From positions 4,136-68,135 of the forward strand of contig DAOUFY010000108.1 of the NCBI GenBank assembly GCA_034429745.1: a stretch of DNA of 64,000 bases, written 5' to 3'. This document shows positions 7,487 through 43,480 of this stretch, piece after piece; the stretch's first letter is position 1, and the number at the start of each line of letters is the position of its first letter. A program made the translations under genes and the position numbers. Source of the DNA: Anaerolineales bacterium (lineage in GTDB: Bacteria > Chloroflexota > Anaerolineae > Anaerolineales > DRKV01). The notes beneath the pieces are model-generated. The model made no database searches and was not told the DNA's origin. It saw only the letters and a program-made list of their open reading frames with translations.

Positions 7487-7879
7487 ATGTGGTGCAAGGC
7501 AATGTTATCCTTACTCCCGGAATACATTCCCATGGATGTACTTTTAGGCATAGGATTAGGAACTATTAGCGGGTTATTAGCTGCAATTTTTTTGCCTCTT
7601 GGAGTAAATAAAAACCCCGCTGGATTTGTTGTAGTTATTGCCTTTGTTGGTTCACTTTTTGGATTTTATTTATTAGGAATTTTCCCATTAACGGTTGTCG
7701 TAGTAACTTTAGCTGTCTTAATCTTTTTGTGGGTAACTTTGCCGGTCTGGTTTGGCAAGGTAAAAACTGATAAAGTAATCACAGATATTGAAGAAAGGAT
7801 TGTGGAAGTTGTCTCGCCTGAAGGCAGGCAAGCAGTATTAGAGGAATTAGGTATTGTTCAGCCAATGGAGTTAAAGTGA
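7487..7879 (+). CDS. Small integral membrane protein
   Basis: 130 aa with three or four hydrophobic segments and a charged C-terminal tail. The start is uncertain because alternative in-frame Met codons exist. Confidence 0.5.
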   Translation: MWCKAMLSLLPEYIPMDVLLGIGLGTISGLLAAIFLPLGVNKNPAGFVVVIAFVGSLFGFYLLGIFPLTVVVVTLAVLIFLWVTLPVWFGKVKTDKVITDIEERIVEVVSPEGRQAVLEELGIVQPMELK

Positions 7880-7902
7880 GAGATTGGCTAATCTTGAAAC
7901 CT

Positions 7903-7942
7903 AAAAAGGGATAGGCAGAGGACCTATCCCTTTTTTTATTTT
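7903..7942. terminator. Bidirectional intrinsic terminator between convergent genes
   Basis: An A-run precedes the stem GGGATAGG (7908-7915) / CCTATCCC (7923-7930) and a T7ATTTT tract follows it. It serves the + gene ending at 7879 and pfp ending at 7941. Confidence 0.7.
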
Positions 7943-10621: not shown

Positions 10622-10825
10622 AAATAAGCGTTGTGTTTTTTATGAAATTGTGTTGGTTTAAAAAAGGTAAACTAACTCATATATTATGCAGAGCAAATTT
10701 TGATGCTCATTATATCATGATATCATGAAAAAACTTGAGCATAAGTAGAAACCAGCGGCATAGGTTGATGAGGTTTTTTGCATCTCGCTCTTTCCCTAAG
10801 AAGGAAAACGTGTTAGACTAAACAT

Positions 10826-11812: not shown

Positions 11813-11853
11813 TTGAATAGAGAGAAAAGGGGAAAAAAATTTTTTATCATCTC

Positions 11854-11882
11854 TTGACAAGCTGAGCAGAAAAACATATAAT
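11854..11882 (+). promoter_or_regulatory. Consensus sigma-70 promoter for tRNA-Asn
   Basis: TTGACA (11854-11859), an exact 17-nt spacer, then TATAAT (11877-11882). The tRNA starts 14 nt downstream. Confidence 0.7.
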
Positions 11883-11895
11883 CAGTATGGATTGT

Positions 11896-11968
11896 TCCTC
11901 GGTAGGTCAATCGGCAGAGCAATCGGCTGTTAACCGATGGGTTGCAGGTTCGAGTCCTGCCCGGGGAG
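11896..11968 (+). tRNA. tRNA-Asn (anticodon GTT)
   Basis: Hand-folded cloverleaf. The acceptor stem is UCCUCGG/CCGGGGA with one U-G pair. The anticodon arm is AUCGG-CUGUUAA-CCGAU and the T arm is GCAGG-UUCGAGU-CCUGC. The D stem GGUC/GAGC has a G11-G24 mismatch. No CCA is encoded. Confidence 0.85.
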
Positions 11969-11977
11969 CTGATCTTT

Positions 11978-12035
11978 ATGCCCTCAACGTCAGATGACCA
12001 ATTGCCAAAAATTGATGTAGAGGGCATTTTTATTT
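11978..12035 (+). terminator. Putative terminator after tRNA-Asn
   Basis: ATGCCCTC (11978-11985) pairs with GAGGGCAT (12020-12027) across a long, partly paired loop, followed by TTTTATTT. Confidence 0.5.
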
Positions 12036-12049
12036 AAGAAGTAAAGGTT

Positions 12050-12772
12050 ATGAGCAGTATTCCAAGTGAAAAGAAAGTCATTATTGTTGATCCTGACCCA
12101 AAATATGGGAATCTTATCAGTCAGATATTAAAAGGGGAAGGTTTTACACCTATCGTTGTACAGAAAGGTGAAAAAGCCCTCCGAATTGCTGCAGATGAGG
12201 GCCTATATTTAACCATCACCGAAATAAATCTTTTAGGTGAGATTGATGGTTACGAGCTGGCGCGCCGAATTCGTACATTTTCTGAAATGCCAATACTCTT
12301 TGTTTCCGCTCAGGATGAAACGCAAGCTGTCTTATGGGCTTTTGAGTCTGGGGCAGATGATTTTATTACAAAACCATTTGATGCCAGAGTGCTGATAGCG
12401 CGTATAAAAGCGCATTTGAAGAGGAGCAGCGGAACGAGTGTTCAGGCAACTGAATTGACTTTTCAGCATATTACTATTCATTTAGCAACTCGGCAGGTAA
12501 CTGCTGATGATCAGCTGGTCTATCTCACTGAGACGGAATACAATCTTTTGTTGGAGTTAGCAAAGAATCACGATCGAGTTTTGACACATGAATATTTATT
12601 GAATGCTGTATGGGGTAATGCTTATAAAGACGAAGTAAATTATTTGCGCTCATACGTACACAATCTAAGACGCAAGCTGGAACGAGACCCAGCAAACCCG
12701 CAGCTGATACTCAGCCGCATGGGAGTGGGTTATATGCTTGTTTCTACTGCGCCAGCCGATGGAGGAGGTTGA
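12050..12772 (+). CDS. OmpR/KdpE-like response regulator with an atypical receiver (Glu at the phospho-acceptor position)
   Basis: Receiver plus winged-helix domain (C-terminus LRSYVHNLRRKLERDPANPQLILSRMGVGYML). The end of beta-3 reads YLTITEINLLGEIDG, so Glu replaces the conserved Asp. The N-terminal acidic pair reads VDPDP. The conserved S (FVSA) and K (TKPF) are retained. Confidence 0.85.
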   Translation: MSSIPSEKKVIIVDPDPKYGNLISQILKGEGFTPIVVQKGEKALRIAADEGLYLTITEINLLGEIDGYELARRIRTFSEMPILFVSAQDETQAVLWAFESGADDFITKPFDARVLIARIKAHLKRSSGTSVQATELTFQHITIHLATRQVTADDQLVYLTETEYNLLLELAKNHDRVLTHEYLLNAVWGNAYKDEVNYLRSYVHNLRRKLERDPANPQLILSRMGVGYMLVSTAPADGGG

Positions 12773-12776
12773 TTTT

Positions 12777-14066
12777 ATGCTACCTGGAACTACAGTAAAC
12801 CTGTTTGAAATGGCACAAAAGCAATTTGATCGGATAGCAGATATGCTTGGGCTGGATCAACCCACACGTGATTTTTTGCGTCAGCCAATGCGCGAGACTC
12901 AATTTAGTTTACCAGTGTTTCTTGATAATGGAGATACAGTGGTTTTGCGCGGGCATCATATTCAGCACAATGACAGCCGCGGTCCAACCAAGGGCGGAAT
13001 ACGTTTTCATCCACAAGAAACAGTGGATACAATTCGCGCCTTGGCGATGTGGATGACGTGGAAATGTGCAATTGCCAATTTGCCATTAGGAGGCAGCAGC
13101 AGTGGGGTAGCCTGCGATCCGCATAGCTTAAGCCCGATGGAAATGGAAAGAGTATGTCGCGGTTTTATGCGTAAGTTAGCTCATTTTGTCAATCCACAAG
13201 GGGATATCTTAGGACCTGATATTATGGTGGGCCCTCAGCAACTTTTGTGGATGCTGGATGAATATGAGGTTATTCACGGCAGGAAACAGCCAGGTGTGAT
13301 TACAGGCAAGCCAATCCACCATGCCGGCTCTAAAGGTAGCAAGGAAGCCCCAGGCTTTGGGGTTATGATCACAGTGCGCGAAGCTTTGAAGGATATGGGC
13401 ATTCCTATCGAGCAGACCAAAGCGAGTATCCAAGGCTTTGGCATGGTTGGCAGACATGCTGCTCAACTTTACAGCCAAATGGGCGGCAAAGTTGTCTGTG
13501 TAGCTTGCTGGAATCATGATGATCATACAGCGTATGCTTTTTATCATAAAGAAGGGTTGGATATTGGACGATTGATTGCTATAACAGACGCGTATGGCGA
13601 AATAGATAAAAGAAAAGCAATTGAAATGGGATATGAATGTCTGCCGGGTGAATCTTGGATTGAGCAAGATGTAGATATTTTGGTTCCAGCTGCCCTTGAG
13701 AACCAGATTCGGCACGATAATATCGAGCGCATCAGCATGCGCGTGAAAATTATAGCCGAAGCAGCTAGCGGACCAACAGATCCGGATGTTGATCCTCTAC
13801 TGCAGGAGAGAGGTATTGTAATTATCCCCGACATATTAGCCAATTGCGGCGGAGAGGTATGCAGTTATTTTGAGCAAGTGCAGAGCAATATGAATTATTA
13901 TTGGAGCCAAGATGAGATTCTTAGCAGGCTGGATTCAATTATGACTTCAGCTTACATAGATGTGAGCAAATTTGCTCATGAAAATCAATTGCAGCTGCGC
14001 GAGGCTGCTTATTTATTGGCAGTTGAGCGGGTGGCGCGGGCTTGCCATGAACGCGGCTGGATATAG
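12777..14066 (+). CDS. Glu/Leu/Phe/Val-dehydrogenase family paralogue with a substituted catalytic motif (GDH-like, probably non-canonical)
   Basis: GDH motifs GPTKGGIRFH, MTWKCA and GFGMVG (Rossmann) are present, but the Gly-rich catalytic turn reads LPLGGSSSGVACDP instead of GG[GA]KGG. I prefer the ATG at 12777, 8 nt after GGAGGAGG, over the tracked 12738 start, which overlaps the upstream gene. Confidence 0.85.
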   Translation: MLPGTTVNLFEMAQKQFDRIADMLGLDQPTRDFLRQPMRETQFSLPVFLDNGDTVVLRGHHIQHNDSRGPTKGGIRFHPQETVDTIRALAMWMTWKCAIANLPLGGSSSGVACDPHSLSPMEMERVCRGFMRKLAHFVNPQGDILGPDIMVGPQQLLWMLDEYEVIHGRKQPGVITGKPIHHAGSKGSKEAPGFGVMITVREALKDMGIPIEQTKASIQGFGMVGRHAAQLYSQMGGKVVCVACWNHDDHTAYAFYHKEGLDIGRLIAITDAYGEIDKRKAIEMGYECLPGESWIEQDVDILVPAALENQIRHDNIERISMRVKIIAEAASGPTDPDVDPLLQERGIVIIPDILANCGGEVCSYFEQVQSNMNYYWSQDEILSRLDSIMTSAYIDVSKFAHENQLQLREAAYLLAVERVARACHERGWI

Positions 14067-14078
14067 CCATCTTGTTAA

Positions 14079-15812
14079 ATGTTAACCATAGCACCGAATT
14101 TTCATCTCATTACTCTACGCAAAGGATCTCATAAAACTCAAGCTTTGCTGGAAGGACAAGAAGAATTGGGCGGCAAAGCTCATGGATTGCTTTCGGTTCG
14201 ACATGTGTTGGAGGATCTCCGCCCTCAATTTTTGTCTCAATTGATGCTTGATATACCCAAGCTGACTGTGTTGGGGACAAGTGTGTTTGAAGCATTTATA
14301 GAACGCAACAATTTGCTCGGGATTGCTCTATCGAAATCATCTGACGACCGTATTGCTAACGCGTTTTTGCGAGCAGATATGCCCTTTGAGGTACTGGGAG
14401 AACTGCATAATTTGGTAGAGAATTGGAAAACGCCTCTAGCTATACGCTCTTCCGGCTTGCTGGAAGATACAACCCGCCGACCTTTTGCTGGTGTATATGT
14501 AACAAAGATGATTCCCAATAATCAAGCGAATATCAATGTGCGCTTGCAAAAATTGCTTGAGGCAGTGAAGTTCGTTTGGGCATCTACTTATTTCAAAATT
14601 GCTAAGGATTACTGTAAAGCCACACAACTTGGCATTGAAAGCGAAAAGATGGCAGTCATTATTCAAGAGGTGATTGGCAGAAAACATGGGTCGCGTTTTT
14701 ACCCTGATCTCTCCGGAGTTGCTCGTTCTTATAATTTTTATCCATTCCCACCTGCTAAAACCGAGGATGGAGTCGTCAATTTGGCATTGGGGTTGGGAAA
14801 GACCATTGTTGATGGAGGAAAAAGTTGGATTTATTCGCCTGCATATCCGCATCACCCACCGCCATTTTCTTCTGTTCAAGAACTGCTGGATAAGACTCAG
14901 ACCCATTTTTGGGCAATTAATTTAGGTGAACCGCCGCAGTATGATCCTCTTAAAGAAGCAGAATTTATGCAGCGTGATCATCTTATGACAGCAGATAAAG
15001 ATAGGGTTCTGGCGCTGCTTGCCTCAACATATGATCCGCAGTCAGAACGGGTGAGCATGGGAACTTCAGAAAGAGGACCTAGAATATTGAATTTCGCTCC
15101 CTTGATCACCATGAAAGAGATACCGTTTAATGAGTTGTTGATCAACCTTATGAAGAAGTGTGAGAGTGAGTTTGGCATGCCGGTAGAGATTGAGTTTGCA
15201 GCGACTTTTGAGCCTAATCGGTTTGGTTTCTTGCAAGTTCGCCCAATGGCTATGCCGCGTGGTGATGTGAAAGTTTCAACTAGCGAATTGGCAGGGGATA
15301 ATGTACTCGTCGCTTCGGATGTGGTGCTTGGCAATGGAGTCATTGATGAGATTCAGGACGTGGTGTATGTCATACCAGAGCGTTTTGATCTGAAATATAC
15401 GAAGGATATAGCTGTTGAGCTTGAAGAACACAACAATGCTTTGCTTAGCCTTCAGCGCCCTTATGTGCTTATTGTCTTTGGCAGACTTGGTACATTGGAT
15501 CCATGGCTTGGGATACCCGTGGCTTGGGGGCAAATATGCGGGGCAAAGGTGATAGTAGAAGCTACTCAGAGTAATGTGAGGGTTGAATTAAGTCAAGGTT
15601 CACATTACTTCCATAATATCATCAATTTGGGGGTACTTCATTTTTCCATACCCTTCACAAAACCTTATCATATTCGCTGGGATTGGTTGAAAGAACAGCC
15701 GCTGATTGCAGAAAAAGAATACACCCGGCATGTCTGTTTTAAATCACCTTTGCTGGTTAAAGTTGATGGCCGCAGTGGGCGAGGAGTGATCTTACGCACT
15801 TCTTTAGGTTAA
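14079..15812 (+). CDS. PEP/pyruvate-binding (PPDK N-terminal ATP-grasp) domain protein without a phosphohistidine swivel domain
   Basis: GGKAHGL ... LAIRSSGLLED ... FAGVY, typical of the PPDK_N nucleotide-binding domain. No GGxTSHAAI-type mobile His motif was seen. The C-terminal roughly 200 aa are uncharacterised. Confidence 0.8.
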   Translation: MLTIAPNFHLITLRKGSHKTQALLEGQEELGGKAHGLLSVRHVLEDLRPQFLSQLMLDIPKLTVLGTSVFEAFIERNNLLGIALSKSSDDRIANAFLRADMPFEVLGELHNLVENWKTPLAIRSSGLLEDTTRRPFAGVYVTKMIPNNQANINVRLQKLLEAVKFVWASTYFKIAKDYCKATQLGIESEKMAVIIQEVIGRKHGSRFYPDLSGVARSYNFYPFPPAKTEDGVVNLALGLGKTIVDGGKSWIYSPAYPHHPPPFSSVQELLDKTQTHFWAINLGEPPQYDPLKEAEFMQRDHLMTADKDRVLALLASTYDPQSERVSMGTSERGPRILNFAPLITMKEIPFNELLINLMKKCESEFGMPVEIEFAATFEPNRFGFLQVRPMAMPRGDVKVSTSELAGDNVLVASDVVLGNGVIDEIQDVVYVIPERFDLKYTKDIAVELEEHNNALLSLQRPYVLIVFGRLGTLDPWLGIPVAWGQICGAKVIVEATQSNVRVELSQGSHYFHNIINLGVLHFSIPFTKPYHIRWDWLKEQPLIAEKEYTRHVCFKSPLLVKVDGRSGRGVILRTSLG

Positions 15813-15857
15813 GGTAAAAATTTCATTTACCTTATTTCCCTTATTATTGTTTTTTTG
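15811..15857 (+). terminator. Putative terminator ending the RR/GDH-like/PPDK_N operon
   Basis: AAGGTAAA (15811-15818) / TTTACCTT (15826-15833) form a perfect 8-bp stem, followed by a T-rich tail ending in T7. Confidence 0.5.
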
Positions 15858-15902
15858 ATGAAATCTTGATACTATTGGCGCAATTTTGATGATATCTTAA
15901 TA
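15853..15902 (+). promoter_or_regulatory. Direct repeat pair upstream of gdhA (candidate operator)
   Basis: TTTTGATGAAATCTTGATA (15853-15871) and TTTTGATGATATCTTAATA (15884-15902) match at 17 of 19 positions. They are 31 bp apart start to start and lie about 60-110 nt upstream of the gdhA ATG. Confidence 0.35.
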
Positions 15903-15959
15903 GTTCTTGTGTTATAAAGAACCTATCTAAACTATATTGACTTAAGGAGGTTTTAGGTT

Positions 15960-25492: not shown

Positions 25493-26554
25493 GTGGCACA
25501 GGAAAACAACAGCATAGAGAATGATATTCAACTGCCGCGTTTTTTAGCGGCTTGTCGGCGTCAGGCAGTAGATGCAACGCCAGTTTGGTTTATGCGTCAA
25601 GCCGGCCGATATATGCAGGAATATCAGGCTATACGCGCCAAAGCCAGCTTGCTTAAGATCTGCCAAACACCTGAATTGGCAGTAGAAGTTACTCTTCAAC
25701 CGCTGCGAGTATTAGGGGTAGATGCAGCTATTCTGTTTGCGGATATTCTCTTGCCGGCGATCCCGCTGGGCGTGGGTGTTTCTTTTGTCGAAGGTAAGGG
25801 CCCGATCATTCATCGCCCAATTCGCAGTATAAAAGATGTGCAAGCATTGAAACCATTTGATCCAAACGAAGAATTAAGCTATGTGTATGAAACTATTCGC
25901 TTGCTGCGCGCTGAACTGAAAGGAATACCATTGATCGGGTTCTGTGGAGCGCCTTTTACTTTTGCGGCGTATCTCATTGAAGGCGGGACTTCGCGCAATT
26001 TTATTCTGACAAAAACAATGATGTATGCTGCCCCGGAAACATGGTTTGCTCTATTGGAGGGGCTTACAGATGTGTTGATTGAATACTTGACGGCACAAAT
26101 TCGAGCAGGTGCGCAGGCGGTGCAGGTCTTTGATTCATGGGTAGGGATGCTTTCGCCGGATGATTATCGCAATTTTGTTCAACCATTTTCGGCGCGTTTG
26201 TTGAAAGCCGTAGAAAGGGAAGGAGTGCCGGTAATTCACTTTGGCACTCAAACCAACACCTTGTTGAAGCTGATGAAAGCAGCCGGCGGTACGGTGTTGG
26301 GCTTGGACTGGCGGATTCCCTTGGATGAGGGGTGGCAATTGCTGGGTGATGACGTAGCGGTGCAGGGAAATCTCGACCCGGTTGTGTTGTTTGCACCGCT
26401 CAAGGAGATAAAGAAACGGGTGGAGGATGTACTGCGGCGGGCAAATGGGCGCAAGGGGCATATTTTTAACCTTGGACATGGCATTTTACCGCATACTCCT
26501 GTAGATCATGTAAAAGCAGTAGTGGAGATGGTGCATGAATTTCGCAATGAGTGA
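25493..26554 (+). CDS. hemE: Uroporphyrinogen decarboxylase
   Basis: PVWFMRQAGRYM, AILFADIL and NLGHGI. GTG start preceded by AAGGAG. Confidence 0.92.
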   Translation: MAQENNSIENDIQLPRFLAACRRQAVDATPVWFMRQAGRYMQEYQAIRAKASLLKICQTPELAVEVTLQPLRVLGVDAAILFADILLPAIPLGVGVSFVEGKGPIIHRPIRSIKDVQALKPFDPNEELSYVYETIRLLRAELKGIPLIGFCGAPFTFAAYLIEGGTSRNFILTKTMMYAAPETWFALLEGLTDVLIEYLTAQIRAGAQAVQVFDSWVGMLSPDDYRNFVQPFSARLLKAVEREGVPVIHFGTQTNTLLKLMKAAGGTVLGLDWRIPLDEGWQLLGDDVAVQGNLDPVVLFAPLKEIKKRVEDVLRRANGRKGHIFNLGHGILPHTPVDHVKAVVEMVHEFRNE

Positions 26555-26927
26555 ATGGAATATGGTGGGCATCGCTGCTGCATTTGCAACTTTGGCAGGC
26601 ATTTGGTTTGGGCATGTCGCTGTGCGCTGGATTGAGTTCCGCACAGCCAACCTCAAACTGCCTGTATTTTTGGCGGTGCTATTGGGATTGTGTTTGGAGA
26701 TCGCCTCGCTTGCTGCTTCAGCCCGTTGGCTTTCGGCTGGCTTAGGCATTTTGGGAGTTACCTTTTTATGGGACGCTGTTGAACTGTTCCGTCAGGAGAA
26801 GCGCGTAAAGCGCGGGCACGCGCCGGCAAATCCCCATAACCCGCGTCATCAGCGCATATTGGCAGAATACCCCACGGCGACTGTTGAAGACCCTTTTCAA
26901 CGATTGGAAAGAGATAAAAATGAGTAA
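26535..26927 (+). CDS. Small 3-TM membrane protein, paralogue A
   Basis: 130 aa, overlapping the hemE end. In-frame alternative starts lie at 26547 and 26562. It shares the motif W..xELxxQExRxK and its TM topology with the next ORF. Confidence 0.5.
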   Translation: MNFAMSEWNMVGIAAAFATLAGIWFGHVAVRWIEFRTANLKLPVFLAVLLGLCLEIASLAASARWLSAGLGILGVTFLWDAVELFRQEKRVKRGHAPANPHNPRHQRILAEYPTATVEDPFQRLERDKNE

Positions 26928-26940
26928 ATTCTCTTGAAGC

Positions 26941-27282
26941 ATGAAAATGGCTGAAAAATTTGCCGTATTGGATTTTTTTGGAATAGTTGTAGGCATGATC
27001 ACATTATTGATCATCGGCTTAGGTTTTGTTTGGGTTATTTATGGTGAGCGTTATTTTGGGGCTGCTTGGTCGGGTGTGGTGCTGGGGTTAGGAATGGTGA
27101 TCATTCTCCTTTCTGGTCTGATTCAAAATGATTGGATTGCGGCGGTAGTCGGTATATGGGGGGCTTCGTTGGTTTGGGGCAGTACAGAACTTAAAGCTCA
27201 AGAACGACGGGCAAAATTGGGGTGGTTCCCAAACCGTGAAAAGAAGATATCGTTTCCTTTTGCGCACACCCGCAGGAGTTAA
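26941..27282 (+). CDS. Small 3-TM membrane protein, paralogue B
   Basis: 113 aa. It aligns with the preceding ORF across the TM segments, and LVWGSTELKAQERRAKLGWFP matches FLWDAVELFRQEKRVKRGHAP. Confidence 0.5.
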   Translation: MKMAEKFAVLDFFGIVVGMITLLIIGLGFVWVIYGERYFGAAWSGVVLGLGMVIILLSGLIQNDWIAAVVGIWGASLVWGSTELKAQERRAKLGWFPNREKKISFPFAHTRRS

Positions 27283-27303
27283 TCCTCCAATAAGGATAAG
27301 CTG

Positions 27304-28800
27304 ATGGAGATTTACCGCGAGACGAACGGGAAATATAATCATCCGCAGCAAGCTGCATTAGCGGTTGTTGGGGGGGGAATTGCAGGTTTGGCAGCAGCTT
27401 ATTATGCCATGCGTTACAGCCGAGAAAACCATCTGCCCTTGCGAGTGATGCTGTTTGAAGCGGAGGCAAGGTTTGGCGGAAAGATTGTTACAGAACGCGT
27501 GGCTCATGATGGCGGGCATTTTATCATTGAAGGCGGACCAGATACTTTTTTGGCGACGAAGCCGGGCGGCGTTGCGTTATGCAAAGATCTAAACTTGTCT
27601 GAGAGACTGCAAGGCACAAACCCCAATCAAAGAAATACGTACGTACTTCACAGAGGAAAGCTGCTGCCTTTGCCGGATGGGCTAGCCCTGATGATTCCGG
27701 CGGATATACCATCAGTGCTGCGCTCGCAGCTGCTGACATGGGGAGAGAAAATACGGATGGGGGCGGATTTTCTATTGCCGCCGCGAAACGGAAATGAGGA
27801 TGAAAGCTTGGGCGCATTTATCAGCCGCCGTTTGGGACGAGCTGCCTATGAAAATTTGATTGAACCACTAATGTCCGGCATTTATGCCGGGGATGGTGAT
27901 CAGCTTAGCTTAGCTGCAACTTTTCCTACCTTGCGCGATTTGGAAAGAAAGTACGGTTCTTTAGCGCGCGGCGCGTTGAAAATGCGCAAAGCTATGGGGA
28001 GCAACCAAAAGTCAGGCTGGCGTTCTTCTTTTTTAACCCCCTTGACAGGGCTTGGCGAAATTATAGAAACTTTGGTGCAGGAGCTTTCTCGCTTAGGTGC
28101 AGAGCTTTACCCAAGTTCTCGCGTTATTAGCATTGAACGGGGAAAAAGCACTGGCAGAGGCGGTTTTATCTTAACCGTTGAGCCTAACAAAGCATTTTCT
28201 GTGGATGGATTGATTTTGGCGGCTAATGCTTTTCAAAGCGGACAGCTGCTGAAAACGCTGAATGCTGAGCTAAGTGAGCTGCTGCAAAGTATTCCATACA
28301 CATCAACGGCGACGATCTCTTTAGCTTATCGGGCGGACGATTTGCCGCGCCCTTTAGATGGCTATGGGTATGTCATACCGCGTCGCGAGAAACGGCGGGC
28401 GCTTGCCTGCACATGGACAAGCACTAAATTTCCGCATCGCGCTCCGCCGGGTTATGTCCTGCTACGTGTGTTTGCCGGCAGAGCCGGTGAAGAAGCTGAG
28501 CTGCCAGATAGTGAAGACGCCTTGCTTGAGATCGCAAAAGAGGAACTGCGTTTATCTTTGAAGATCACCGCTGAGCCGCTGCTTCATAAGGTTTTTTATT
28601 GGGAAAAAGCTATGCCACAATATAATCTTGGACACTTGATGAAATTGCAGCGCATTGACGCGATCCTGCAAAGCGAATCAGCACTTGCCTTGGCTGGCAA
28701 TGGTTACCGCGGCATAGGCATTCCCGATTGCATTGTCTCAGGGGAACAGGCGGTAAATAGGGTGATGAGCAGTATAAAGGAGAAGGTTTATGAAGATTGA
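27304..28800 (+). CDS. hemY: Protoporphyrinogen/coproporphyrinogen III oxidase, HemY (CgoX) type, FAD-dependent
   Basis: Dinucleotide fold [14 protein letters not shown]. The length and the C-terminal motifs ([25 protein letters not shown]) are typical of HemY. Confidence 0.85.
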
Positions 28801-30076
28801 GCGATCGGAACAGTATTATAAAAAAGCACAAACGTTATTTCCGGGCGGTGTGAATTCACCGGTGCGCGCCTTTCGTGCCGTAGGTGGACAGCCGCTGTTC
28901 ATAGAACGCGGTACAGGAGTGCATCTCTATGATGTGGATGGAAATCGTTATATTGATTATGTGCTTTCGTGGGGTCCGCTTATCGCCGGACATGCTCACC
29001 CGGCAGTTGTAGAGGCATTGGTGCAAGCTGCAGCAAAAGGCACTTCTTATGGAGCACCCTGCCCATTGGAGGTTGAGCTTGCATTAAAAATCCAATCTTT
29101 TATGCCTAACCTTGAAATGCTGCGCTTTGTCAATTCGGGCACTGAAGCGACGATGTCGGCATTGCGGTTGGCGCGGGCTTATACCGGACGCGATAAAATC
29201 ATCAAGTTTGAGGGCTGCTATCATGGTCATGCGGATATGCTGTTGGTGCAAGCAGGATCTGGGGTGGCTACACTAGGCCTGCCGGATTCACCTGGTGTTC
29301 CTCATGATATAACCAAGAATACGTTGGTTGCTAGGTATAATGACTTGGAATCGGTGCAGGTGCTGTTTGAGGCTTATCCGCATCAAGTTGCGGCAGTAAT
29401 TGTTGAGCCGGTAGCTGGAAATATGGGCGTTGTGCCGCCGCTCTCGGACTTTTTAGACGGGCTGCAGCAGCTTGCCCATCAATATGAGGCGTTGTTGATC
29501 TTTGATGAGGTAATGACAGGCTTTCGGGTTCATCCAGGGGGAGCGCAAGCTTTGTATGGAGTTCAACCTGACTTAACCACTTTAGGCAAAGTAATTGGAG
29601 GCGGGCTGCCCGTAGGCGCTTATGGCGGGAAACGCGAGATTATGGAACTTGTAGCACCGGCTGGGGCGATGTATCAGGCCGGAACATTATCTGGTAATCC
29701 ATTGGCTATGAGTGCCGGCTTGGCAACATTAAGTCTGCTGGAAGAACGAGCAGTGTGGGATGAGATGGAGAAACGCGCTCAACAATTAGAAGAAGGTATT
29801 GCTTTAGCTGCCCAAAAAGCTGGAATTCCTATTCAGCAAACTCGAGTAGGCACAATGTTCACAACGTTTTTCATGGAAGCAGAGCCACGTGATTGGGCAA
29901 GTGTGAAAACAGCAAATCGGGAAAGGTACGCTGCCTATTTCCGCAACATGCTGGAGAATGGAGTGTATTTAGCACCCTCGCAGTTTGAAGCTGGATTTCT
30001 TTCAATCCTGCATGATGAGGAAGTGATAAATCAGACAATTGCTGCTGTGGAAAAAAGCTTCAAGGAACTTGCGTGA
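28790..30076 (+). CDS. hemL: Glutamate-1-semialdehyde 2,1-aminomutase
   Basis: [27 protein letters not shown] and TLGKVIGGG (PLP Lys). It overlaps the hemY end by 11 nt. Confidence 0.92.
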
Positions 30077-30280
30077 AAAGGCTATTGCCTCATCCCTTAC
30101 TTCTTTTTTCTGCTTGAACAGAGGAAAAAAGAGAGCGCAATGACGCAAACCTAATGAAAGAAGGTGGCGGAAGGGTTCATTTGAAAAAAGTTTCTGATAA
30201 AAAGGATAGATAATTTATCTTAATTGTTGTATAATTAATGTAATTTTTTAACTACATATTAAGAGGCAGGGGATTGCCTA

Positions 30281-33200
30281 ATGGATGATGATCAGAATAT
30301 TGCTTTTCATATTGTAGGTATTGGAGCCTCAGCAGGGGGATTAGAAGCGTTAGAGAAATTTTTCAGCCATGTACCCGAGAACAGCGACTTAGCGTTTGTT
30401 GTAGTACAGCACCTTTCGCCGGATTATAAAAGCTTAATGGGAGAGCTGCTTTCAAAATGGACTCCGCTTCCTATACATGTGGCACAGGATGGGATGGAAT
30501 TACAGCCCAACCATGTATATTTAATACCGCGCAATAAAAACCTCACGGTTTTTCATCAAAAATTGTTTTTAGCTGAACGCGATCAGGATCAGCTTAATTT
30601 GCCGATCGATATATTTCTTCAATCAATGGCTGAAGATTTAGGGGAAAAAGCGATCGCTGTCATCCTTTCTGGAACAGGCAGTGATGGAACGCGCGGCATT
30701 CGTTTTATTAAAGAACAAGGGGGAATGGTAATGGCGCAGGACCCGAAAACGGCAAAGTTTGACGGTATGCCCCGCAGTGCTATTTCAACTCAGCTCGTAG
30801 ATTATATTCTGCCTCCCGAGCAAATGCCGCGTGAAATATTGAATTATGTTCAGCACCCTTGTTTGACGGGGGATTCCTCTTTAAGGGTGGTATTGTCCGG
30901 CGATGAGGATACGCTTTCGAAAATTTTTGCACTTCTGCGCAGCCAAAGTGGGGTGGATTTTACATATTACAAGCAGAATACGATGGTACGCCGCATTGAA
31001 CGACGGATGAGTATCAATCAGATAAAAAAGATAGGAGATTATCTGCATTACTTATATGAAAACCCGATAGAATTGAACCTGTTGTTTAAGGAGTTGTTAA
31101 TCGGTGTTACTGGGTTTTTCCGAGATCCAGAAGCATTTGATGTGATCAGGAAAAGAGTATTGCCTCAAATTTTTGAAGGCAAGGATCGCGGTGATCAAAT
31201 TCGCGTTTGGGTGGCAGGCTGCTCTACGGGAGAAGAAGCATATTCGCTGGCGATTCTGCTGAGTGATTATATGGAAAAGACCGCGAAATTCCTTGATGTG
31301 AAAGTATTTGCTACCGATTTAGATAAAGATGCATTGGAACAAGCCGGCAAAGGAATATATTCAGAAAGCATTGTTGCAGATATACCAAAGGAATATTTTC
31401 ACAATTACTTTGTACGGCGCGGCGATAGCTATGAAATATTGCGCCGGGTACGCGAGATGGTGATTTTTGCTCAGCAAAATATCATTGATGACCCGCCTTT
31501 TTCAAAGATTGACTTAATTTCCTGCCGAAATGTGCTGATTTATTTGCAGCCTGTGCTCCAAAAGAAAGTGCTTGATGCGTTTCAGTTCTCGCTTAATCCA
31601 GGAGGTTTTCTGTTTTTGGGAACAAGTGAAACCGTTGGGGATATGGGGGACTTTTTTACGAGTTTTGATAATAAATGGAAGATATATCAATATAAAGGTG
31701 GTTTGCGCGGGCATTTGAACGGCAGTGTTATTGCACGTACGATGGGGGACTATCCTTCGACGCGCTTAGCGCCGTACCGCCGCGGCCGTTTTGGTGATGG
31801 AAAACTAGTCGGCGAGGATATGTATCGCTACCTCATTGAGATGTTTTTACCTCCTACTGTTATTATTGATGAGCAAAGGCAGCTATTGCATGCTTTTGGC
31901 AATGTGGATCAATTTTTGCAGGTACCTTCAGGTGGACGAGTAAGTTTGGATTTGTTAAAGATGGTTCGCGAGGGCTTATCTATTCCTTTAAGCACAGCTA
32001 TCCATAAAGTGCTTAAAGACGATCAAGAAGATATTTTGTATAAAAATGTTGCCTTAAGTGAAAAACTGGTCTCTTCCTCTGGGGAAGAGGAAACAGAGGT
32101 AACGTGGATTGATATTTTTGTGAAACCTCTACGCGACCCCGTAACGAAGCAAAAGCAAATTCTTGTTCAGTTTCGCAAAGCACAAACTCAGGAGGAATTA
32201 TCAAAACACGTCGAAACTTTTGATGCAGATGTGAACGCGCTGCAGCGGATTGCTGATCTGGAGCAGGAATTGCAGTTCACCCGCGAATCGCTTCAGGCTA
32301 CTGTTGAGGAATTGGAAACTTCCAATGAGGAGCTGCAAGCGACTAATGAGGAATTGTTGGCTGCGAATGAGGAACTGCAGAGCACCAATGAAGAGCTGCA
32401 ATCCGTCAACGAAGAATTGGTTACTGTGAATGCAGAATATCAAGCGAAGATCCAGGAATTGATGGACTTAAACGCTGATCTAAATAACCTGTTCAGCAGT
32501 ACAGATGTTGGCACCATCTTCCTTGATCGCTTCCTGCGTATTCGTCGTTTTACTCCGGCAGTGCAGCATGAGATTCATCTACTGGAGCAGGATATTGGCC
32601 GCCCGTTGGCACATATTTCGCATAACTTCGTTGGCATTGATCTTGCTTACGAGGCTCAAAGTGTTATTAAGAGTTTATCCGTGAGAGAGATTGAGGTGCA
32701 GAGTGTTCAAAAGCGCTGGTACCTTATAAAATTCCACCCCTACTATACGCTGGATAGGAGACCGGATGGAGTGGTAATTTCACTGGTGGATATCACTGAT
32801 CTAAAGGCTAGCGACGAGCAGGCTATGATGCTTTCTGCTGCGCTTGAACAAAGCCCCTTGTTGAAATTATTAATTAAATTAGATGGCAAGATCATGTATA
32901 TTAACCCGCGAGTGAGAGAAATAACCTCTTATGTGCCAAAAGAAGTACTTGGGTTGTCATGGGAAGAATTTTTGCTCAACCGGTTGAAGGTGAAAGCGGA
33001 TGAACAGAATGCTCATGCCTTATTACAAGAAATTCAAAAAGCTTTTATAAGTGGTGGAATTTGGAAAGGAGATTTATTATACACCAACAAACAGGGGCAG
33101 CAATTTTGGGGTTATTCAATTTTCAGCACCATTTACGGAAAAGAAAGGCAGCCACTGTGTTACTTATGGATGATTGAGGATATCACCGATCGTAAAAAAG

Positions 33201-33979
33201 TGGAAGAGGAATTGCAGCAATCGGAAGCGAAATATGCCAAGCTGTTTTCAGAGATGACGCAAGGTGTGGTGTACCAAGATCAGGATGGGAAGATCATCTC
33301 TTTCAATCCGGCTGCGTTGGAGATTCTGGGATTATCTGAAGATGAGATATTGGGGCGCACCTCGTATGATCCGCGTTGGCAAGCGACTCATGAAGATGGC
33401 TCTGACTTTCCTGGCGATGAGCATCCGGCGATGATTGCCTTACAAAGCGGTAAAGATATCCGCGATATTGTGATGGGTGTTTTCAATCCCAAGGATAATC
33501 AGCATCATTGGATTTATGTCAGTTCTATGCCGCAATTCCGCCCAGGTGAAGATCGTCCATATCAAGTGATTTCCACTTTCACAGATGTAACGGCGTTATT
33601 TAAGGCGCAGAAGTCATTGAAAGAATTGAAAGAGCAACTGCTGGCGGTATTGGATACTTTTGAACTTCCCTTATGGATTGTAAATGACGAAGGGCAGATA
33701 CAAATATGCAATAAGAGCGCTTGCAGGACGTTTTTTGCTGGTCAGCAAGAGAGAGATATAGCAAACTGCATTGCATTCAATAAGTCAATAATCGAGTTGA
33801 TTCCAGCCGAAGGGCGTGAGGCATTTAACCGCTGTTTGCAGCAAGCATTACGGGGCGAGCCTTCTCAGTTATTGTTGCAAGGTCAAGGAATATCGTTGTT
33901 GTTTAAGCCTTTAATAACTTTTCAGGCTGCTGAGGCAAGCAGTGTGTTGATTGTAGGACAGGAACAGGGAAAAGAGTAA
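30281..33979 (+). CDS. CheB-like methylesterase / CheR-like methyltransferase fusion with a coiled coil and multiple PAS domains
   Basis: CheB_methylest motif ([13 protein letters not shown]), CheR SAM-binding motif ([28 protein letters not shown]), an EEL heptad coiled coil, then at least three PAS/PAC-like modules. There is no kinase core. Confidence 0.9.
32303..32446 (+). repeat. In-frame 21-bp periodic repeat encoding the heptad series xEELxxx
   Basis: Translates as [48 protein letters not shown]. The DNA shows imperfect AATGAGGA(A/G)(C/T)TG... units every 21 bp. Confidence 0.75.
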
Positions 33980-34009
33980 TACAGGAAAACGTGTGTTAAG
34001 GAGAATGAA

Positions 34010-35839
34010 ATGGAGAGGGAAGGCAATTTGGATGATTTGAATGAATTGCGCCAACTGGCTGAACGCAAGGTCAAATCCGAAATTGACGTAAAAGGTGTAG
34101 AGACCATCGAGGATGCGCGCGTATTGCTGCATGAATTGCAGATTCATCAAATAGAACTGGAGATGCAAAATGAAGAATTGCGCACCACACGGCAGATGTT
34201 GGAGGAAGAACGCAACAAATACGCGGATTTGTATGATTTTGCACCGATAAGCTATTTTACTTTAAACCCAGAGGGGATTATTCTCGAGATAAATTTAAAT
34301 GGTTCGATGTTGTTGGGCAGGGAACGCAGGTATCTCATCTCAAAACCTTTCGTGTCTTATTTGGCGAACGAATCTCATCAAGTGTTTTTCCAAGCTTTGC
34401 ACAATGCAGCAGCAACAAATGAACCTCAAACATGTGAAGTGATCCTACGTGAAGCTTCTTCTCAATACCCAACATCGAAGCCATCGTTGGGTGAGAAAGT
34501 ATTTTTGCAATTGAAAATTTCTCCATACTTTAGTAAGGAAGCAGAAAGATTTGCGTTGCGCTGTGCTGCAACAGATATCAGCTTGCTAAAGCAGGCTCAA
34601 ATAAAAGTGGAATATGAATCCCGCGTTAATGAAGCCTTGGCAAAGTTGGCAGGAGGAATACTGGTCTCAGATTCTATCAATACTCTAGCTGATGAGGTGC
34701 TCAAAATAGCCCTCAGTCTAACGGACAGCTGCTATGGATTTGTAAGTTACATTGACCAAGAAAAAGGAGTGATGATCGCACCAACTTTAACCAAAGAAAT
34801 ATGGGCTACCTGCAATATACCCCAAAAACAATTTGTATTTGATAAATATGGTGGGCTATGGGGATGGGTAGCAAAGAACAAAGCACCTTTGTTAACTAAT
34901 CAACCGGCCGCCGATCCGCGTTCTGGGGGTGTGCCGGATGGCCATGTTCCCATTCATCGCTTTCTGGGGGTGCCGGTTGTGGCAGGTGATCAATTGTTAG
35001 GCATCATCGCCGTTGCCAATGCTAATCGGGAGTATCAAGTTCAAGATCAGGATACGTTAGGTAGAGTGGCGGATCTATATGCTGTTGCTATACAGCAGTT
35101 CCGTGCGGCTGACTTGTTGAAAAAGCGCACGCAAGAACTTATCCGCTCTAATCAAGAATTGGAAGAATTTGCTTATGTAGCTTCTCATGATTTGCAGGAG
35201 CCCCTGCGGAAAATACGCAGTTTCACCGAATTGCTGCAGAAGCAGCTATACGTTAATATAGATGAGCGTTCGCGTAAGTATATGGATTATGTTGTGGATG
35301 CTGCTCAGAGAATGCAATTGTTGATCAACGACCTGCTGGAGTACTCTCGTTTAGGAAGACTCGAAATAACCTATAAATCGGTGGATATGGAAGCCTTGTT
35401 TAACAAATTGATTTCAGACCTATCACATTTGATTGAGGAAAGCGGCGCAGTCATTACCCATGATCCGTTGCCGCAGATAAAAGCCAACCCGATACAGATG
35501 GAACGTTTGCTGCAAAATTTACTGACGAATGCCTTAAAGTTCCGTACAAGTGAACCGCCGCGGATTTACGTTACAGCCCATCAACAACAGGTTGAGGCAG
35601 CGCAAGGTGATGTCAATGAATGGGTATTTTCTGTCAAAGATAACGGAATTGGCATTCATCCGGATTATCATGAGCGGATCTTTCAACTCTTTCAACGATT
35701 GCATTCGCGGGAGGAATACTCGGGCAGCGGAATGGGGCTGGCAATTTGCAAAAAAATTGTTGAAAAACATGGGGGAAAGATTTGGGTTGAATCGCAAGAG
35801 GGTAAGGGGTCAACCTTTTACTTTACTATTCCCGCCTAA
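34010..35839 (+). CDS. PAS-GAF sensor histidine kinase, cytoplasmic
   Basis: N-terminal coil LHELQIHQIELEMQNEELRTT, a PAS module, a GAF-like module, an H-box (YVASHDLQEPLRKI), and HATPase boxes (LLTNALKF, DNGIGI, GSGMGLA). It starts 30 nt after the CheB/CheR gene. Confidence 0.9.
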   Translation: MEREGNLDDLNELRQLAERKVKSEIDVKGVETIEDARVLLHELQIHQIELEMQNEELRTTRQMLEEERNKYADLYDFAPISYFTLNPEGIILEINLNGSMLLGRERRYLISKPFVSYLANESHQVFFQALHNAAATNEPQTCEVILREASSQYPTSKPSLGEKVFLQLKISPYFSKEAERFALRCAATDISLLKQAQIKVEYESRVNEALAKLAGGILVSDSINTLADEVLKIALSLTDSCYGFVSYIDQEKGVMIAPTLTKEIWATCNIPQKQFVFDKYGGLWGWVAKNKAPLLTNQPAADPRSGGVPDGHVPIHRFLGVPVVAGDQLLGIIAVANANREYQVQDQDTLGRVADLYAVAIQQFRAADLLKKRTQELIRSNQELEEFAYVASHDLQEPLRKIRSFTELLQKQLYVNIDERSRKYMDYVVDAAQRMQLLINDLLEYSRLGRLEITYKSVDMEALFNKLISDLSHLIEESGAVITHDPLPQIKANPIQMERLLQNLLTNALKFRTSEPPRIYVTAHQQQVEAAQGDVNEWVFSVKDNGIGIHPDYHERIFQLFQRLHSREEYSGSGMGLAICKKIVEKHGGKIWVESQEGKGSTFYFTIPA

Positions 35840-36007
35840 TGATCTATAAATAAGACTTATCGTACTTTTTAACAAATTCTTATCTTAGCCTTCTGAAAAT
35901 TGAGTTAAAATCGGGTGTATGGCAATCCACTTCTAATCAATCTGGAGTATAGCAGTAGAGGTGGTGAAGCCGGATATATTTTTGATTAAAGGGGTAAACT
36001 GTTTACT

Positions 36008-40651: not shown

Positions 40652-43480
40652 ATGCAGACAATTGTAGCACTTGATATTGAAACAACGGGATTGAAAGCTG
40701 AAACTGACGTAATTATTGAGTTAGGTGCGGTAAAGTTTAAGGAAAATCATATAGAAGATGAGTGGACTAGCTTAGTTAACCCTAAAAGGCCAATACCGCT
40801 GGCAATTACCCAAATGACTGGGATTACCAGTGAAATGGTAGCGTCTGCCCCAACATTGGATGAAGTGTATGATGAATTTTTGGAATTTATTGGCAACGCG
40901 CCGATTGTCGGGCATAACATTTCTTTTGATTTAAGCTTTTTGCGCCGGCTTGGCGGGCTGCGAAGCAACCCAGTTATTGATACATACGAGATGGCAATGG
41001 TGCTTTTGCCGGGAGTGGAACGGTATGCGTTGAATGTGTTGGTAAAAGCTTTGGAACTACCGGAGCCACCCTCTTATCGCGAACATGGAGCTCATTGTGC
41101 TTTGGTTGATGCGCGTTTAACCCAGCAGCTTTTTGTGCATTTGTATGAAAAAGCGGTGGCTTTGCCGTTAGAACTGCTGGCTGAGATAAATCGTTTAGCG
41201 AAGCAAGTTGAATGGGATGGAAGATGGGCATTTGAGCAGGCTTATCAGCATGCATTGCAGCAGCCATTGAGAAATCCTAAACTCAAAGGAAAGGTATCGG
41301 ATCTATCCTACGCGCCGGTATTTGAAAAGAAGCTGAGACCGGCGATGGTTAAACCGTTGCAGCCGCGCGAAGAAACGCTGCCACTTGACATCGAAGAAGC
41401 TGCAGCCCACTTGGAGCATGGGGGAACATTTGCGCGCTATTTTTCTGCTTTTGAACACCGCCCCGAGCAGGTGGAGATGTTGAAAGCAGTAGCCCGAGCT
41501 ATCTCTGAGGAAAGGCATTTGCTGGTAGAAGCAGGCACAGGAACGGGAAAATCCCTGGCGTATCTGGTGCCGGCAGCTCTTTTTGCGGTGCAAAACCAAA
41601 AACGAGTTGTGATTTCAACCAATACCATCAACCTGCAGGAGCAGTTGATCGAAAAAGATATTCCGGATATTAAAGCTGCCTTGGGGCTGGATTTAGAAGC
41701 AGTTGTGCTTAAGGGTAGAGCAAATTATATTTGTCCACGCCGTTTAAGAGGCATGCTGCACCAACGGTTGGAAAATGCCGATCAGGTACGCATGTTAGCT
41801 AAAGTGCTGGTTTGGCTGCTGAATACCCACAGCGGCGATCGCAGCGAGCTTTCTTTTAATCGTCCGCAAGATAATCAAGTATGGCAGCGGATATCTGCCG
41901 ATGATGAAGGGTGCACCATAGAAGCTTGCTTAAAGCACAGCGGCGGCGGCTGTCCGTTTTACCGCTCGCGTTTGTTAGCTCAAGGAGCACACTTGATTGT
42001 TGTCAACCATGCGCTCTTACTTTCGGATGTGGCTTTGGCACAGCGAGTTCTGCCGGAATATGACTATTTGATCATTGACGAAGGGCATCATTTGGAAGAG
42101 GCTACAACGAATGCGCTGAGTTTTAAAATCAATCAACAGGACATTGAACGGATGATAAAAGAATTGGGCGGGCGCAAATTTGGTCTTTTAGGTTATATGA
42201 TGAATAAATTGCAGGGATTGGTGGCACCCGACATTTATGGGGCTTTTGACCATTTGGTAGAGCAAAGCAGCGATCTAACATTTAGGTTTTTGCAGCGCAA
42301 CAATGAATTTTTTGTTATGTTGGGGCAGTTTCTCTTTGAACAGCGCCAAGGAAAACATTTAGGGCAATATGCACAACAAGAACGAATTGTGGCGGCTACA
42401 CGCTCGCAGCCTGCGTGGGTGGAAGTTGAGATGACATGGGAAACCTGCGAACAGACTTTTAAAGCACTTATAGAGACAATTAATAAAATCATCCAATTGC
42501 TGGCTGAGACAGCTGCTCAAGAATTAGAAGAAATTGAAGAACTGTTTTCCAGCTTAAGTGATTTGCGTCGCCGGCTAGGAGAAGCCTTTAAAGGGATTCA
42601 TCAGCTGATGTTTGAACCTGATCCAAACCAGGTGTATTGGATAGAAGTACAGCCCAACGGCAGTCGCTTGACTTTGCAAAGCGCACCGCTGCGCATTGGT
42701 TCTCTGATGGAGCGCTATCTTTGGTACAGTAAATCTTCCGTAATTGTAACCTCAGCAACCTTAACCGCCGGAGGAGAGTTTGAATATCTCAAGGATCGCT
42801 TAGCAGCTTATGAGGCTGAGGAATTGGCATTAGGTTCTCCATTTGATTATGAAAATGCAGCGCTGCTCTATTTAGTAAATGACATTCCAGAACCAAATGA
42901 ACCCGGCTACCAGAAAGCCCTGGATAAGGGATTGGTAGAATTATGCAAAGCTACTGGCGGCAGAACGTTGATTCTTTTCACTTCATATCATCAGCTGCGG
43001 CTTACTGCACAAAACATAACGCCTTGGCTGCTTAAGGCCGGTATTCGGGTGTTGGAACAAGGTGAGGGTAGCTCGCGGCATGCGCTGCTGAATACTTTTC
43101 GCGAAACCGAGCAAGCGGTGCTGCTTGGCACGCGCTCCTTTTGGGAGGGTGTAGATGTCCCCGGCGAGGCACTTTCGGTGTTGGCGATTACCAAACTGCC
43201 TTTTGGAGTGCCGACAGAACCCATCATTCAAGCACGGGCTGAAACGTTTGATGATCCCTTCAATCAATATCACTTGCCGGAAGCTATCCTACAGTTTCGA
43301 CAAGGTTTTGGACGTTTGATCCGTTCCCAAACTGACCGCGGGGTGGTCATTATCTTTGATAAACGAGTGCTGTCAAAAACGTATGGCAAGCAGTTTCTGG
43401 ACTCTTTGCCATCATGCACCAAACGAGTAGGTTCGCTAGCTGAAATGCCGCGTGCAACGGTGCAGTGGCTGAACCTTTAG
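40652..43480 (+). CDS. dinG: DnaQ-like 3'-5' exonuclease fused to a DinG-family (XPD-like) helicase
   Basis: Exonuclease motifs ALDIETTGL, GHNISFDLSFL and HCALVDA. Helicase motifs AGTGTGKSLAYL and DEGHH. Four Cys in the Fe-S insert region (YICPRR, EGC, EAC, GGGCPFY). Confidence 0.85.
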   Translation: MQTIVALDIETTGLKAETDVIIELGAVKFKENHIEDEWTSLVNPKRPIPLAITQMTGITSEMVASAPTLDEVYDEFLEFIGNAPIVGHNISFDLSFLRRLGGLRSNPVIDTYEMAMVLLPGVERYALNVLVKALELPEPPSYREHGAHCALVDARLTQQLFVHLYEKAVALPLELLAEINRLAKQVEWDGRWAFEQAYQHALQQPLRNPKLKGKVSDLSYAPVFEKKLRPAMVKPLQPREETLPLDIEEAAAHLEHGGTFARYFSAFEHRPEQVEMLKAVARAISEERHLLVEAGTGTGKSLAYLVPAALFAVQNQKRVVISTNTINLQEQLIEKDIPDIKAALGLDLEAVVLKGRANYICPRRLRGMLHQRLENADQVRMLAKVLVWLLNTHSGDRSELSFNRPQDNQVWQRISADDEGCTIEACLKHSGGGCPFYRSRLLAQGAHLIVVNHALLLSDVALAQRVLPEYDYLIIDEGHHLEEATTNALSFKINQQDIERMIKELGGRKFGLLGYMMNKLQGLVAPDIYGAFDHLVEQSSDLTFRFLQRNNEFFVMLGQFLFEQRQGKHLGQYAQQERIVAATRSQPAWVEVEMTWETCEQTFKALIETINKIIQLLAETAAQELEEIEELFSSLSDLRRRLGEAFKGIHQLMFEPDPNQVYWIEVQPNGSRLTLQSAPLRIGSLMERYLWYSKSSVIVTSATLTAGGEFEYLKDRLAAYEAEELALGSPFDYENAALLYLVNDIPEPNEPGYQKALDKGLVELCKATGGRTLILFTSYHQLRLTAQNITPWLLKAGIRVLEQGEGSSRHALLNTFRETEQAVLLGTRSFWEGVDVPGEALSVLAITKLPFGVPTEPIIQARAETFDDPFNQYHLPEAILQFRQGFGRLIRSQTDRGVVIIFDKRVLSKTYGKQFLDSLPSCTKRVGSLAEMPRATVQWLNL

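Follow-up and report, generated by a model that had tools for sequence, protein, structure and literature searches.

In a 64,000-nucleotide stretch of an Anaerolineales bacterium genome (contig DAOUFY010000108.1 of assembly GCA_034429745.1, called the window below), a gene encoding a fusion of the chemotaxis adaptation enzymes CheB and CheR lies immediately ahead of a histidine kinase gene. Our data are best explained by the gene pair being an operon-like unit that belongs to a widespread family of CheB/CheR-fusion sensors, a family that works with two-component kinases and not with a chemotaxis receptor array. We show here that relatives of this fusion sensor, termed CheBR, are linked to kinases across phyla and that the most conserved part of CheBR is an acidic heptad helix that resembles the methylation sites of methyl-accepting chemotaxis proteins (MCPs). 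Reversible glutamate methylation in bacteria is understood almost only as chemoreceptor adaptation. However, about 13,000 cluster representatives at 50% identity carry both enzymes apart from receptors, with a substrate that is undefined in the literature we found. The missing acceptor now has a specific, testable candidate within CheBR itself. We propose, with a confidence that falls just short of an even chance, that CheBR is a self-contained methylation switch whose built-in helix tunes the partner kinase. A broader version is possible, held more tentatively and somewhat below an even chance: CheB/CheR fusions in general would be self-contained switches, their NEEL helix a non-MCP acceptor, and the short copies of this helix in other sensors substrates in trans.

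Kinase linkage of the CheB-CheR fusion family

The CheBR gene (30281..33979, + strand) starts with ATG and encodes 1232 amino acids (aa), as judged by open reading frame (ORF) calling, Pfam and NCBIfam. After an intergenic gap of 30 nt follows the gene for a cytoplasmic PAS-GAF histidine kinase without receiver domain (34010..35839, + strand, ATG start, 609 aa; ORF call and Pfam). ORF calling and Pfam hidden Markov model searches thus confirm the two ORFs, the domain calls and the 30-nt spacing given in a first-pass annotation of this DNA, and NCBIfam agrees with Pfam on both proteins at the domain level only. Transmembrane segments are predicted in neither CheBR nor the kinase. Within the kinase, Pfam recognizes GAF_2 (residues 221-362), HisKA (384-449, including H393) and HATPase_c (493-608), together spanning 34670..35833 (+ strand). 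The HisKA match (E 1.5e-13), the HATPase_c match (E 2.7e-31) and the H-box ASHDLQEPLR mark the protein as a HisKA-type sensor kinase, and residues 78-181 give a weak Pfam match to PAS. The kinase gene is preceded by a Shine-Dalgarno sequence, AAGGAG, read from the sequence at 33998..34003 (+ strand) and placed 6 nt ahead of the ATG. A terminator scan found no terminator-like site in the 30-nt gap, which is consistent with co-transcription of the two genes. The nearest such site is a weak hairpin at 33926-33943, within the 3' end of the CheBR gene.

Synteny was analyzed in 80 species-level loci (1.36 Mb), with ORFs scored by the window's own domains. In 19 of the 80 loci CheBR itself continues at its C-terminus into a kinase core, and in 38 the next gene on the same strand opens with an N-terminal helix-PAS module of the type found in the window kinase. 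The contig ends after CheBR in 5 loci and nothing of the kind lies directly downstream in 18, at least five of which have a module-bearing gene nearby, be it upstream, convergent or farther downstream (for example L007, L049, L033 and L027). Hence, a kinase is fused or a helix-PAS partner is next in 57 of the 75 loci with downstream sequence. The module stands directly downstream of CheBR in 38/75 loci, compared to 12/977 for the other genes of these loci (binomial P ~5e-52, uncorrected for phylogeny). In the window kinase this module consists of a helix (LLHELQIHQIELEMQNEELRTT...) and a PAS domain (34115..34552, + strand), and it is common to the CheBR partner proteins across phyla. Its consensus reads LRxxAE...LLHELQVHQIELEMQNEELRxxQxELExxRxRYxDLYxxAPVGYxTLD, also written as the HQIELEMQNEELR module, in partners that are 19-33% identical overall. 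Domain scans of 33 partners (the window kinase and 32 others) gave HATPase_c in 28, HisKA in 24, Response_reg in 17, GGDEF in 4 and EAL in 2. A few representatives have the module joined straight behind the PAS_10 domain of CheBR. Genes of chemotaxis systems are rare neighbours, with MCP matches at 2/80 loci and CheW at 0/80. The LRxxAE element of the partners is a second short motif that stands 20-35 residues upstream of the HELQVHQIELEMQNEEL helix (seen in L002-L079); the window kinase version is LRQLAER (residues 14-20, 34049-34069).

The family is large. With CheBR residues 1-480 as query, HMMER retrieved 13,098 cluster representatives at 50% identity (E<=1e-30), so that the earlier remark that the architecture occurs in databases is borne out. 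A word-index search gave at least 8000 clusters at 90% identity, many of which JGI names 'two-component system CheB/CheR fusion protein', and KEGG catalogues the CheB/CheR fusion protein as K13924. A single HMMER stretch covers residues 4-479 in 148 of the top 150 representatives. In species genomes (one genome per species) 597 of 600 pattern matches were relatives. These occur in Chloroflexota, Desulfobacterota, Alpha-, Beta- and Gammaproteobacteria, Planctomycetota, Gemmatimonadota and Verrucomicrobiota, in Bacilli, Lachnospiraceae, Cyanobacteria and the archaeon Methanolobus, and among the Bacteroidota in Mucilaginibacter, Marinifilum and Chitinophagaceae. CheBR of the window has the hallmarks of the family, namely a CheB_methylest domain with its triad, a CheR domain C-terminal to it in the same chain, and a NEEL helix followed by PAS_10. 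Its closest relatives, at <=60% identity, are proteins from Chloroflexota/Anaerolineae metagenome-assembled genomes. The window pair is therefore an ordinary member of a catalogued, mechanistically unexplained family. One contig (L081; JGI 3300045909, Ga0496406_001111) derives from the same or a near-identical organism, on which the kinase and neighbouring genes are broken up into numerous short ORFs, presumably by assembly frameshifts; because of this fragmentation the protein collection holds no full-length match for the window proteins. A Verrucomicrobiota contig (L075) carries two divergent CheBR genes (3964-8877, - strand, and 9941-12640, + strand), one with a fused kinase and receiver and two helix matches, the other with a helix-PAS partner behind it.

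The acidic heptad helix as candidate methyl acceptor

The region behind the enzymes was modelled with AlphaFold2 (AF2; residues 480-850, 49 aligned sequences, mean predicted local distance difference test (pLDDT) score 87.5). In this model a disordered segment (480-507) is followed by a PAS-like fold (509-633), a single helix of 92 residues (649-740; 32225..32500, + strand; pLDDT 94-98) and PAS_10 (residues 734-839; 32480..32797, + strand; Pfam E 8.9e-25). The helix contains an acidic heptad array (residues 675-723; 32303..32449, + strand), recognized by its conservation and by a near-match to the MCP consensus, that provides candidate methyl-accepting sites. Its core consists of six N-E-E-L-x-[AS]-[TV] heptads. 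Conservation along CheBR peaks at residues 661-720, with a per-residue identity of 0.85-0.93 in 121 sequences, compared to 0.70-0.83 for the catalytic cores and <0.2 for linkers and distal PAS domains. Acidic residues dominate, with 18 D+E against 2 K+R in residues 661-727. This conservation result held in a bias-free set of the 150 best representatives retrieved with the CheB-CheR part alone, in which helix and PAS_10 occur together in 138 proteins. The remaining 12, of 525-821 aa, look truncated, since they are short and mostly stop shortly behind CheR or the PAS-like fold. Within the 138 helix-bearing representatives the N, E, E and L positions are conserved to >=93%, most to >=97%. Constraint extends to every one of the seven heptad positions, even to b, c, e, f and g, which are exposed, and this is more than a spacer demands. 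The segment had been taken for a mere coiled-coil spacer before, whereas the heptad helix is the most conserved and most informative part of CheBR.

The MCP methylation consensus is [ASTG][ASTG]xx[EQ][EQ]xx[ASTG][ASTG], with the second E/Q, at heptad position c, being methylated (PMC6829392, quoting Alexander and Zhulin). The CheBR heptads have the same register, with N at a, E at b and c, L at d and small residues at f and g. Each heptad satisfies 4-5 of the 6 specified consensus positions, and four heptads fit EExx[AST][AST]. Of 76 CheBR proteins, 53 have at least three heptad-spaced [EQ][EQ]xx[ASTG][ASTG] sites, and the same holds for just 1 of 1015 other genes from these loci. Tar MH1 has three such sites. 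At the 14 glutamate positions of the 138 representatives Glu is replaced 37 times, 20 times by Gln. This preference echoes the Gln-encoded sites of MCPs, although the numbers are small. The likeness of the helix to MCP sites is one in possible mode of action, not in family membership.

The enzymes themselves are well preserved. The CheB methylesterase domain (residues 12-186; 30314..30838, + strand; Pfam CheB_methylest E 7.9e-60) was aligned to 3SFT and 1CHD, and its triad S17/H44/D135 falls on the GASTGG, QHMPPGF and GMGNDG motifs of Salmonella CheB (PDB 1CHD). CheR comprises CheR_N (212-262) and the S-adenosylmethionine (SAM)-binding domain (276-466; together 30914..31678, + strand; Pfam CheR E 1.2e-55). 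It was aligned to 5FTW, 5XLX and 1AF7, and its motifs, including CRNVLIY, match those of 5FTW, 1AF7 and 1BC5 (B. subtilis, P. aeruginosa and Salmonella CheR were compared). The CheB triad and the SAM-binding motif residues of CheR are invariant across 24 aligned homologues, and the basic CheR helix YKxxTxxRRIERR is conserved in invariant columns. With every catalytic residue in place and unchanged among the homologues, a pseudo-enzyme reading was rejected. Both catalytic domains are intact and the enzymes look active. Pfam finds no Response_reg match in CheBR, where the CheB domain begins at residue 12 without an N-terminal receiver; consequently, phosphorylation of the CheA type cannot control CheB.

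Enzymes and rod are joined by a flexible tether of roughly residues 470-508 (31688..31804, + strand), in which homologue identity drops to 0.12-0.17 and AF2 pLDDT stays below 50 for residues 480-507. Together with the N-cap helix of the next domain (residues 470-524) it has a median length of 54 residues, with a range of 48-61 in 127 representatives. The tether is thus conserved in length and unconserved in sequence. The PAS-like domain that follows, here called MID (residues 509-633; 31805..32179, + strand), has PAS topology in the AF2 model with pLDDT around 90. Pfam gives no match for it, it is detected in 68/80 loci, and the domain list of the first-pass annotation did not have it. Foldseek searches with the model lead to the tandem-PAS sensors DosP, FixL, PpsR and LOV-PAS-HK; by sequence, the best solved structure reaches an E of only 0.15, both for the MID-helix-PAS_10 region and for the kinase N-terminus. 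Behind PAS_10 a variable sensory tail (32873..33976, + strand; conservation 0.02-0.5) holds PAS_9 (865-970) and PAS (985-1084) according to Pfam, and the C-terminus (1100-1232) is, by its appearance in sequence alone, probably PAS-like as well.

We propose that the acidic built-in helix would be the methyl acceptor of CheBR's own enzymes. The tethered CheR and CheB domains would write and erase methyl esters on the glutamates at the c positions of the array (E677, E684, E691, E698, E705 and E712), and the PAS domains would tilt the balance between methylation and demethylation. The resulting charge state might determine how stably, or in which register, the helix dimer packs, as chemoreceptor methylation does. 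Since basic residues that would offset the charge are lacking and the a positions are all Asn, the helix is probably only marginally stable. PAS_10 and the PAS domains behind it would relay the state of the helix to the kinase, in cis at loci with a fused kinase. For the window pair the relay would work in trans, via the matching N-terminal helix-PAS module of the kinase. The pair had been described before as a self-contained methylation-tuned input. The linkage to kinases across phyla and a candidate internal acceptor that is plausible by sequence partly support this description, with methyl transfer as its hypothetical part.

Several observations count against an internal acceptor. A parallel two-helix coiled coil is a substrate geometry other than the four-helix bundle of MCPs, and the extreme conservation of the helix could equally fit a protein-binding surface. 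The strict MCP consensus has no match in CheBR, because its first position always fails, and a hidden MCP within the helix was rejected, as no MCPsignal (PF00015) match appears at E<=0.01. The first homologue sets, collected with a word index and the pattern NEELQ[AS]TN, were biased toward the conserved helix. In a reverse sampling of 7 partner-type proteins on long contigs, CheBR lies directly upstream in 2 and is absent within 6 kb in 5. The partner module is thus not exclusive to CheBR neighbourhoods.

The partner module also raises the idea that the kinase, not CheBR, is the methyl acceptor. Methylation would then fall on the c-position Glu of its N-terminal helix (HEL / IEL / NEEL), and the CheBR helix would dock there as a hetero-coiled-coil with the Asn residues at the a positions fixing the register. 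The conservation of the module despite the low overall identity of the partners, and its frequent place right behind CheBR, would fit such a role. NEELRTT of the window kinase also conforms to EExx[AST][AST], and the helix-to-PAS spacing of partner and CheBR differs by exactly one heptad. However, the family consensus NEELRR[AST] has a bulky basic residue at a position that is occupied by a small residue in MCP sites, and the partner helix has a single Glu-Glu heptad instead of an array. Furthermore, kinases fused in cis mostly are without the module, and the six conserved heptads of CheBR would be left unexplained. We consider methylation of the kinase improbable. Even more doubtful is that the helix is a purely structural signalling helix, with the enzymes acting on a third-party substrate or the two genes adjacent by chance. 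Long helices between PAS domains are common in sensors, as the Foldseek matches DosP, FixL and LOV-PAS-HK illustrate. But the constraint on all seven heptad positions, exposed ones included, goes beyond structural needs, and the synteny across phyla excludes chance adjacency.

If the built-in helix is indeed the acceptor, methylation-based memory would reach into classical two-component and cyclic di-GMP signalling. Thousands of species, among them possibly lineages that have no chemotaxis, would then possess an adaptation memory in the style of chemotaxis. As for substrates in trans, a membrane-anchored multi-PAS protein encoded about 5 kb from the CheBR gene of one locus (L033:3537-6725, + strand) carries a short heptad helix of the CheBR type (EELEATNEQLMASEEELKAADEE). 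It is without CheB or CheR domains and is the sole non-CheBR gene among the 1015 with at least three sites. This protein could be a substrate of CheBR in trans.

Genomic surroundings and the chemoreceptor alternative

Chemotaxis genes in the window were searched by Pfam on 41 ORFs (the two focal ones and 39 others) and by six-frame phmmer with Tar, CheW and CheY probes. Neither approach detected MCPsignal, CheW, CheA or CheY in the 64 kb, in agreement with the absence of MCP, CheA, CheW and CheY noted earlier. The sole receiver domain of the window belongs to an OmpR-type regulator (12050-12772), and there is none in or beside the CheBR-kinase pair. A flagellin gene (6533-7426, + strand; Flagellin_N and Flagellin_C, 297 aa) is isolated, with an ABC transporter cluster on one side and a phosphofructokinase gene on the other. 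Given this gene the organism is probably motile, and che genes are likely to be found elsewhere in the genome. Conventional MCP substrates probably exist there as well. The first-pass annotation had called the normal substrate of CheB and CheR locally missing; this was a statement about 64 kb and does not carry over to the genome, where the flagellin gene makes MCPs likely.

Alternatively, CheBR may be an auxiliary, PAS-regulated adaptation enzyme that acts on MCPs encoded elsewhere. In that case the helix would serve as a rod for dimerisation, or as a pseudosubstrate masking the active sites until the PAS domains unmask them, and the adjacent kinase would merely share the input signal. Besides the flagellin gene, the basic residues retained in the substrate-recognition helix of CheR and two canonical active sites agree with such an enzyme. 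By the title of a 2011 article by Wu et al. (Microbiol Res 166:606), the only functional study of the family that our search identified, a CheR/CheB fusion of A. brasilense Sp7 is reportedly involved in chemotaxis and cyst development, and an Azospirillum locus (L039) is among the relatives. On the other hand, CheBR is rarely found beside che genes, and at most loci with downstream sequence the kinase is fused or next. CheBR also occurs in Bacteroidota such as Mucilaginibacter, which is not known to have flagella or che systems. True Glu-Glu pairs with an occasional Gln are unexpected in a pseudosubstrate. In Phaeobacter inhibens the chimeric CheB-CheR gene lies outside the CtrA-controlled che regulon and is not co-regulated with the CtrA-dependent che genes (bioRxiv 10.1101/2025.03.24.645028). 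We regard this role on distant MCPs as rather unlikely. Should the enzymes nevertheless serve MCPs, the family would be a PAS-gated branch of adaptation, which is worth knowing but less new.

Upstream of the pair lies a heme operon (20842-30076) with hemA, hemC, hemB, a radical-SAM gene, hemE, a hemY-like gene and hemL. A tie of CheBR to this operon was considered and is unsupported, as the closest relative (L001) has other neighbours. In the 204-nt gap after hemL, 46 nt before the CheBR start, the candidate promoter TAGATA-17-TATAAT (30207..30235, + strand) has 10/12 matches. It is the best site of the region and a candidate only, as the promoter and terminator scans gave no enrichment over shuffles. 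The G+C content (analyzed for 30001-36000) is 0.42-0.435 in the pair, compared to 0.495-0.513 in the heme operon and 0.48 in the downstream genes. Since values as low occur elsewhere in the window, this is no clear sign of horizontal transfer. Within the heme operon, two small membrane proteins of 130 and 113 aa (26535-26927 and 26941-27282, + strand), apparent paralogues, are encoded between hemE and the gene of the hemY-like oxidase. Farther away, two paralogous Glu/Leu/Phe/Val dehydrogenases (442 and 451 aa) surround a PPDK_N protein (577 aa) at 12738-17315 (+ strand), directly after the orphan OmpR-type response regulator. A 942-aa fusion of an RNase_T-type exonuclease with a DinG-like helicase (DEAD_2, Helicase_C_2) is encoded at 40652-43480 (+ strand), just upstream of mfd.

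Comparison with known systems

A full-text literature search returned no defined substrate or mechanism for the family, no printed NEEL repeat and no proposal of a built-in acceptor; the S-helix paper leaves CheB and CheR unmentioned. New here are the kinase linkage across loci, the acceptor-like heptad helix and the length-conserved tether. The catalogued CheB/CheR fusions share one order, with CheB, CheR, a PAS-like domain, the heptad helix, PAS_10 and variable PAS domains. The window CheBR differs from them by three additional PAS-type modules and by a kinase that is encoded separately, as a PAS-GAF protein without receiver.

The catalytic folds and residues of CheBR are those of CheR and CheB from E. 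coli and Salmonella (1AF7, 1BC5, 1CHD, 1A2O). The logic proposed for CheBR, in which glutamates of an acidic helix are methylated by one enzyme and demethylated by the other, is also the one by which CheR and CheB act on MCPs. Unlike the separate Che enzymes, the two activities of CheBR share a single chain with CheB ahead of CheR, whereas che operons tend to have the R gene first (PMC2829493). Further differences from the canonical pair are the lack of a CheB receiver, the absence of a che cluster and an output through HisKA instead of CheA. The candidate substrate, too, belongs to CheBR itself, in the form of a two-stranded helix. In MCPs, a flexible C-terminal arm with a pentapeptide at its end recruits CheR and CheB. 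The tether of CheBR, covalent, of fixed length and beside a 14-nm rod, recalls this arm. At the level of the helix itself, CheBR and the MCP helices (Tar/Tsr MH1) are both acidic and have heptad-spaced Glu-Glu pairs at b/c followed by small residues, with an occasional Gln. The CheBR helix, in contrast, has Asn at every a position and six repeats, is far more conserved and is without MCPsignal homology. It is probably a parallel dimer, while MCPs form an antiparallel four-helix bundle.

Other proteins share parts of this design. CheR-TPR fusions such as FrzF (PMC3447774) combine CheR with an extra domain and are used outside flagellar chemotaxis, similar to CheBR. They stay, however, in che-like clusters with MCP, CheA and CheW and act on MCPs, whereas CheBR occurs with kinases. 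FixL, DosP and the Brucella LOV-PAS-HK have a rod of PAS, long helix and PAS together with a HisKA output, as the CheBR pair does. None of them has covalent-modification enzymes or an acidic repeat array, and it is by these two features that CheBR stands apart from them.

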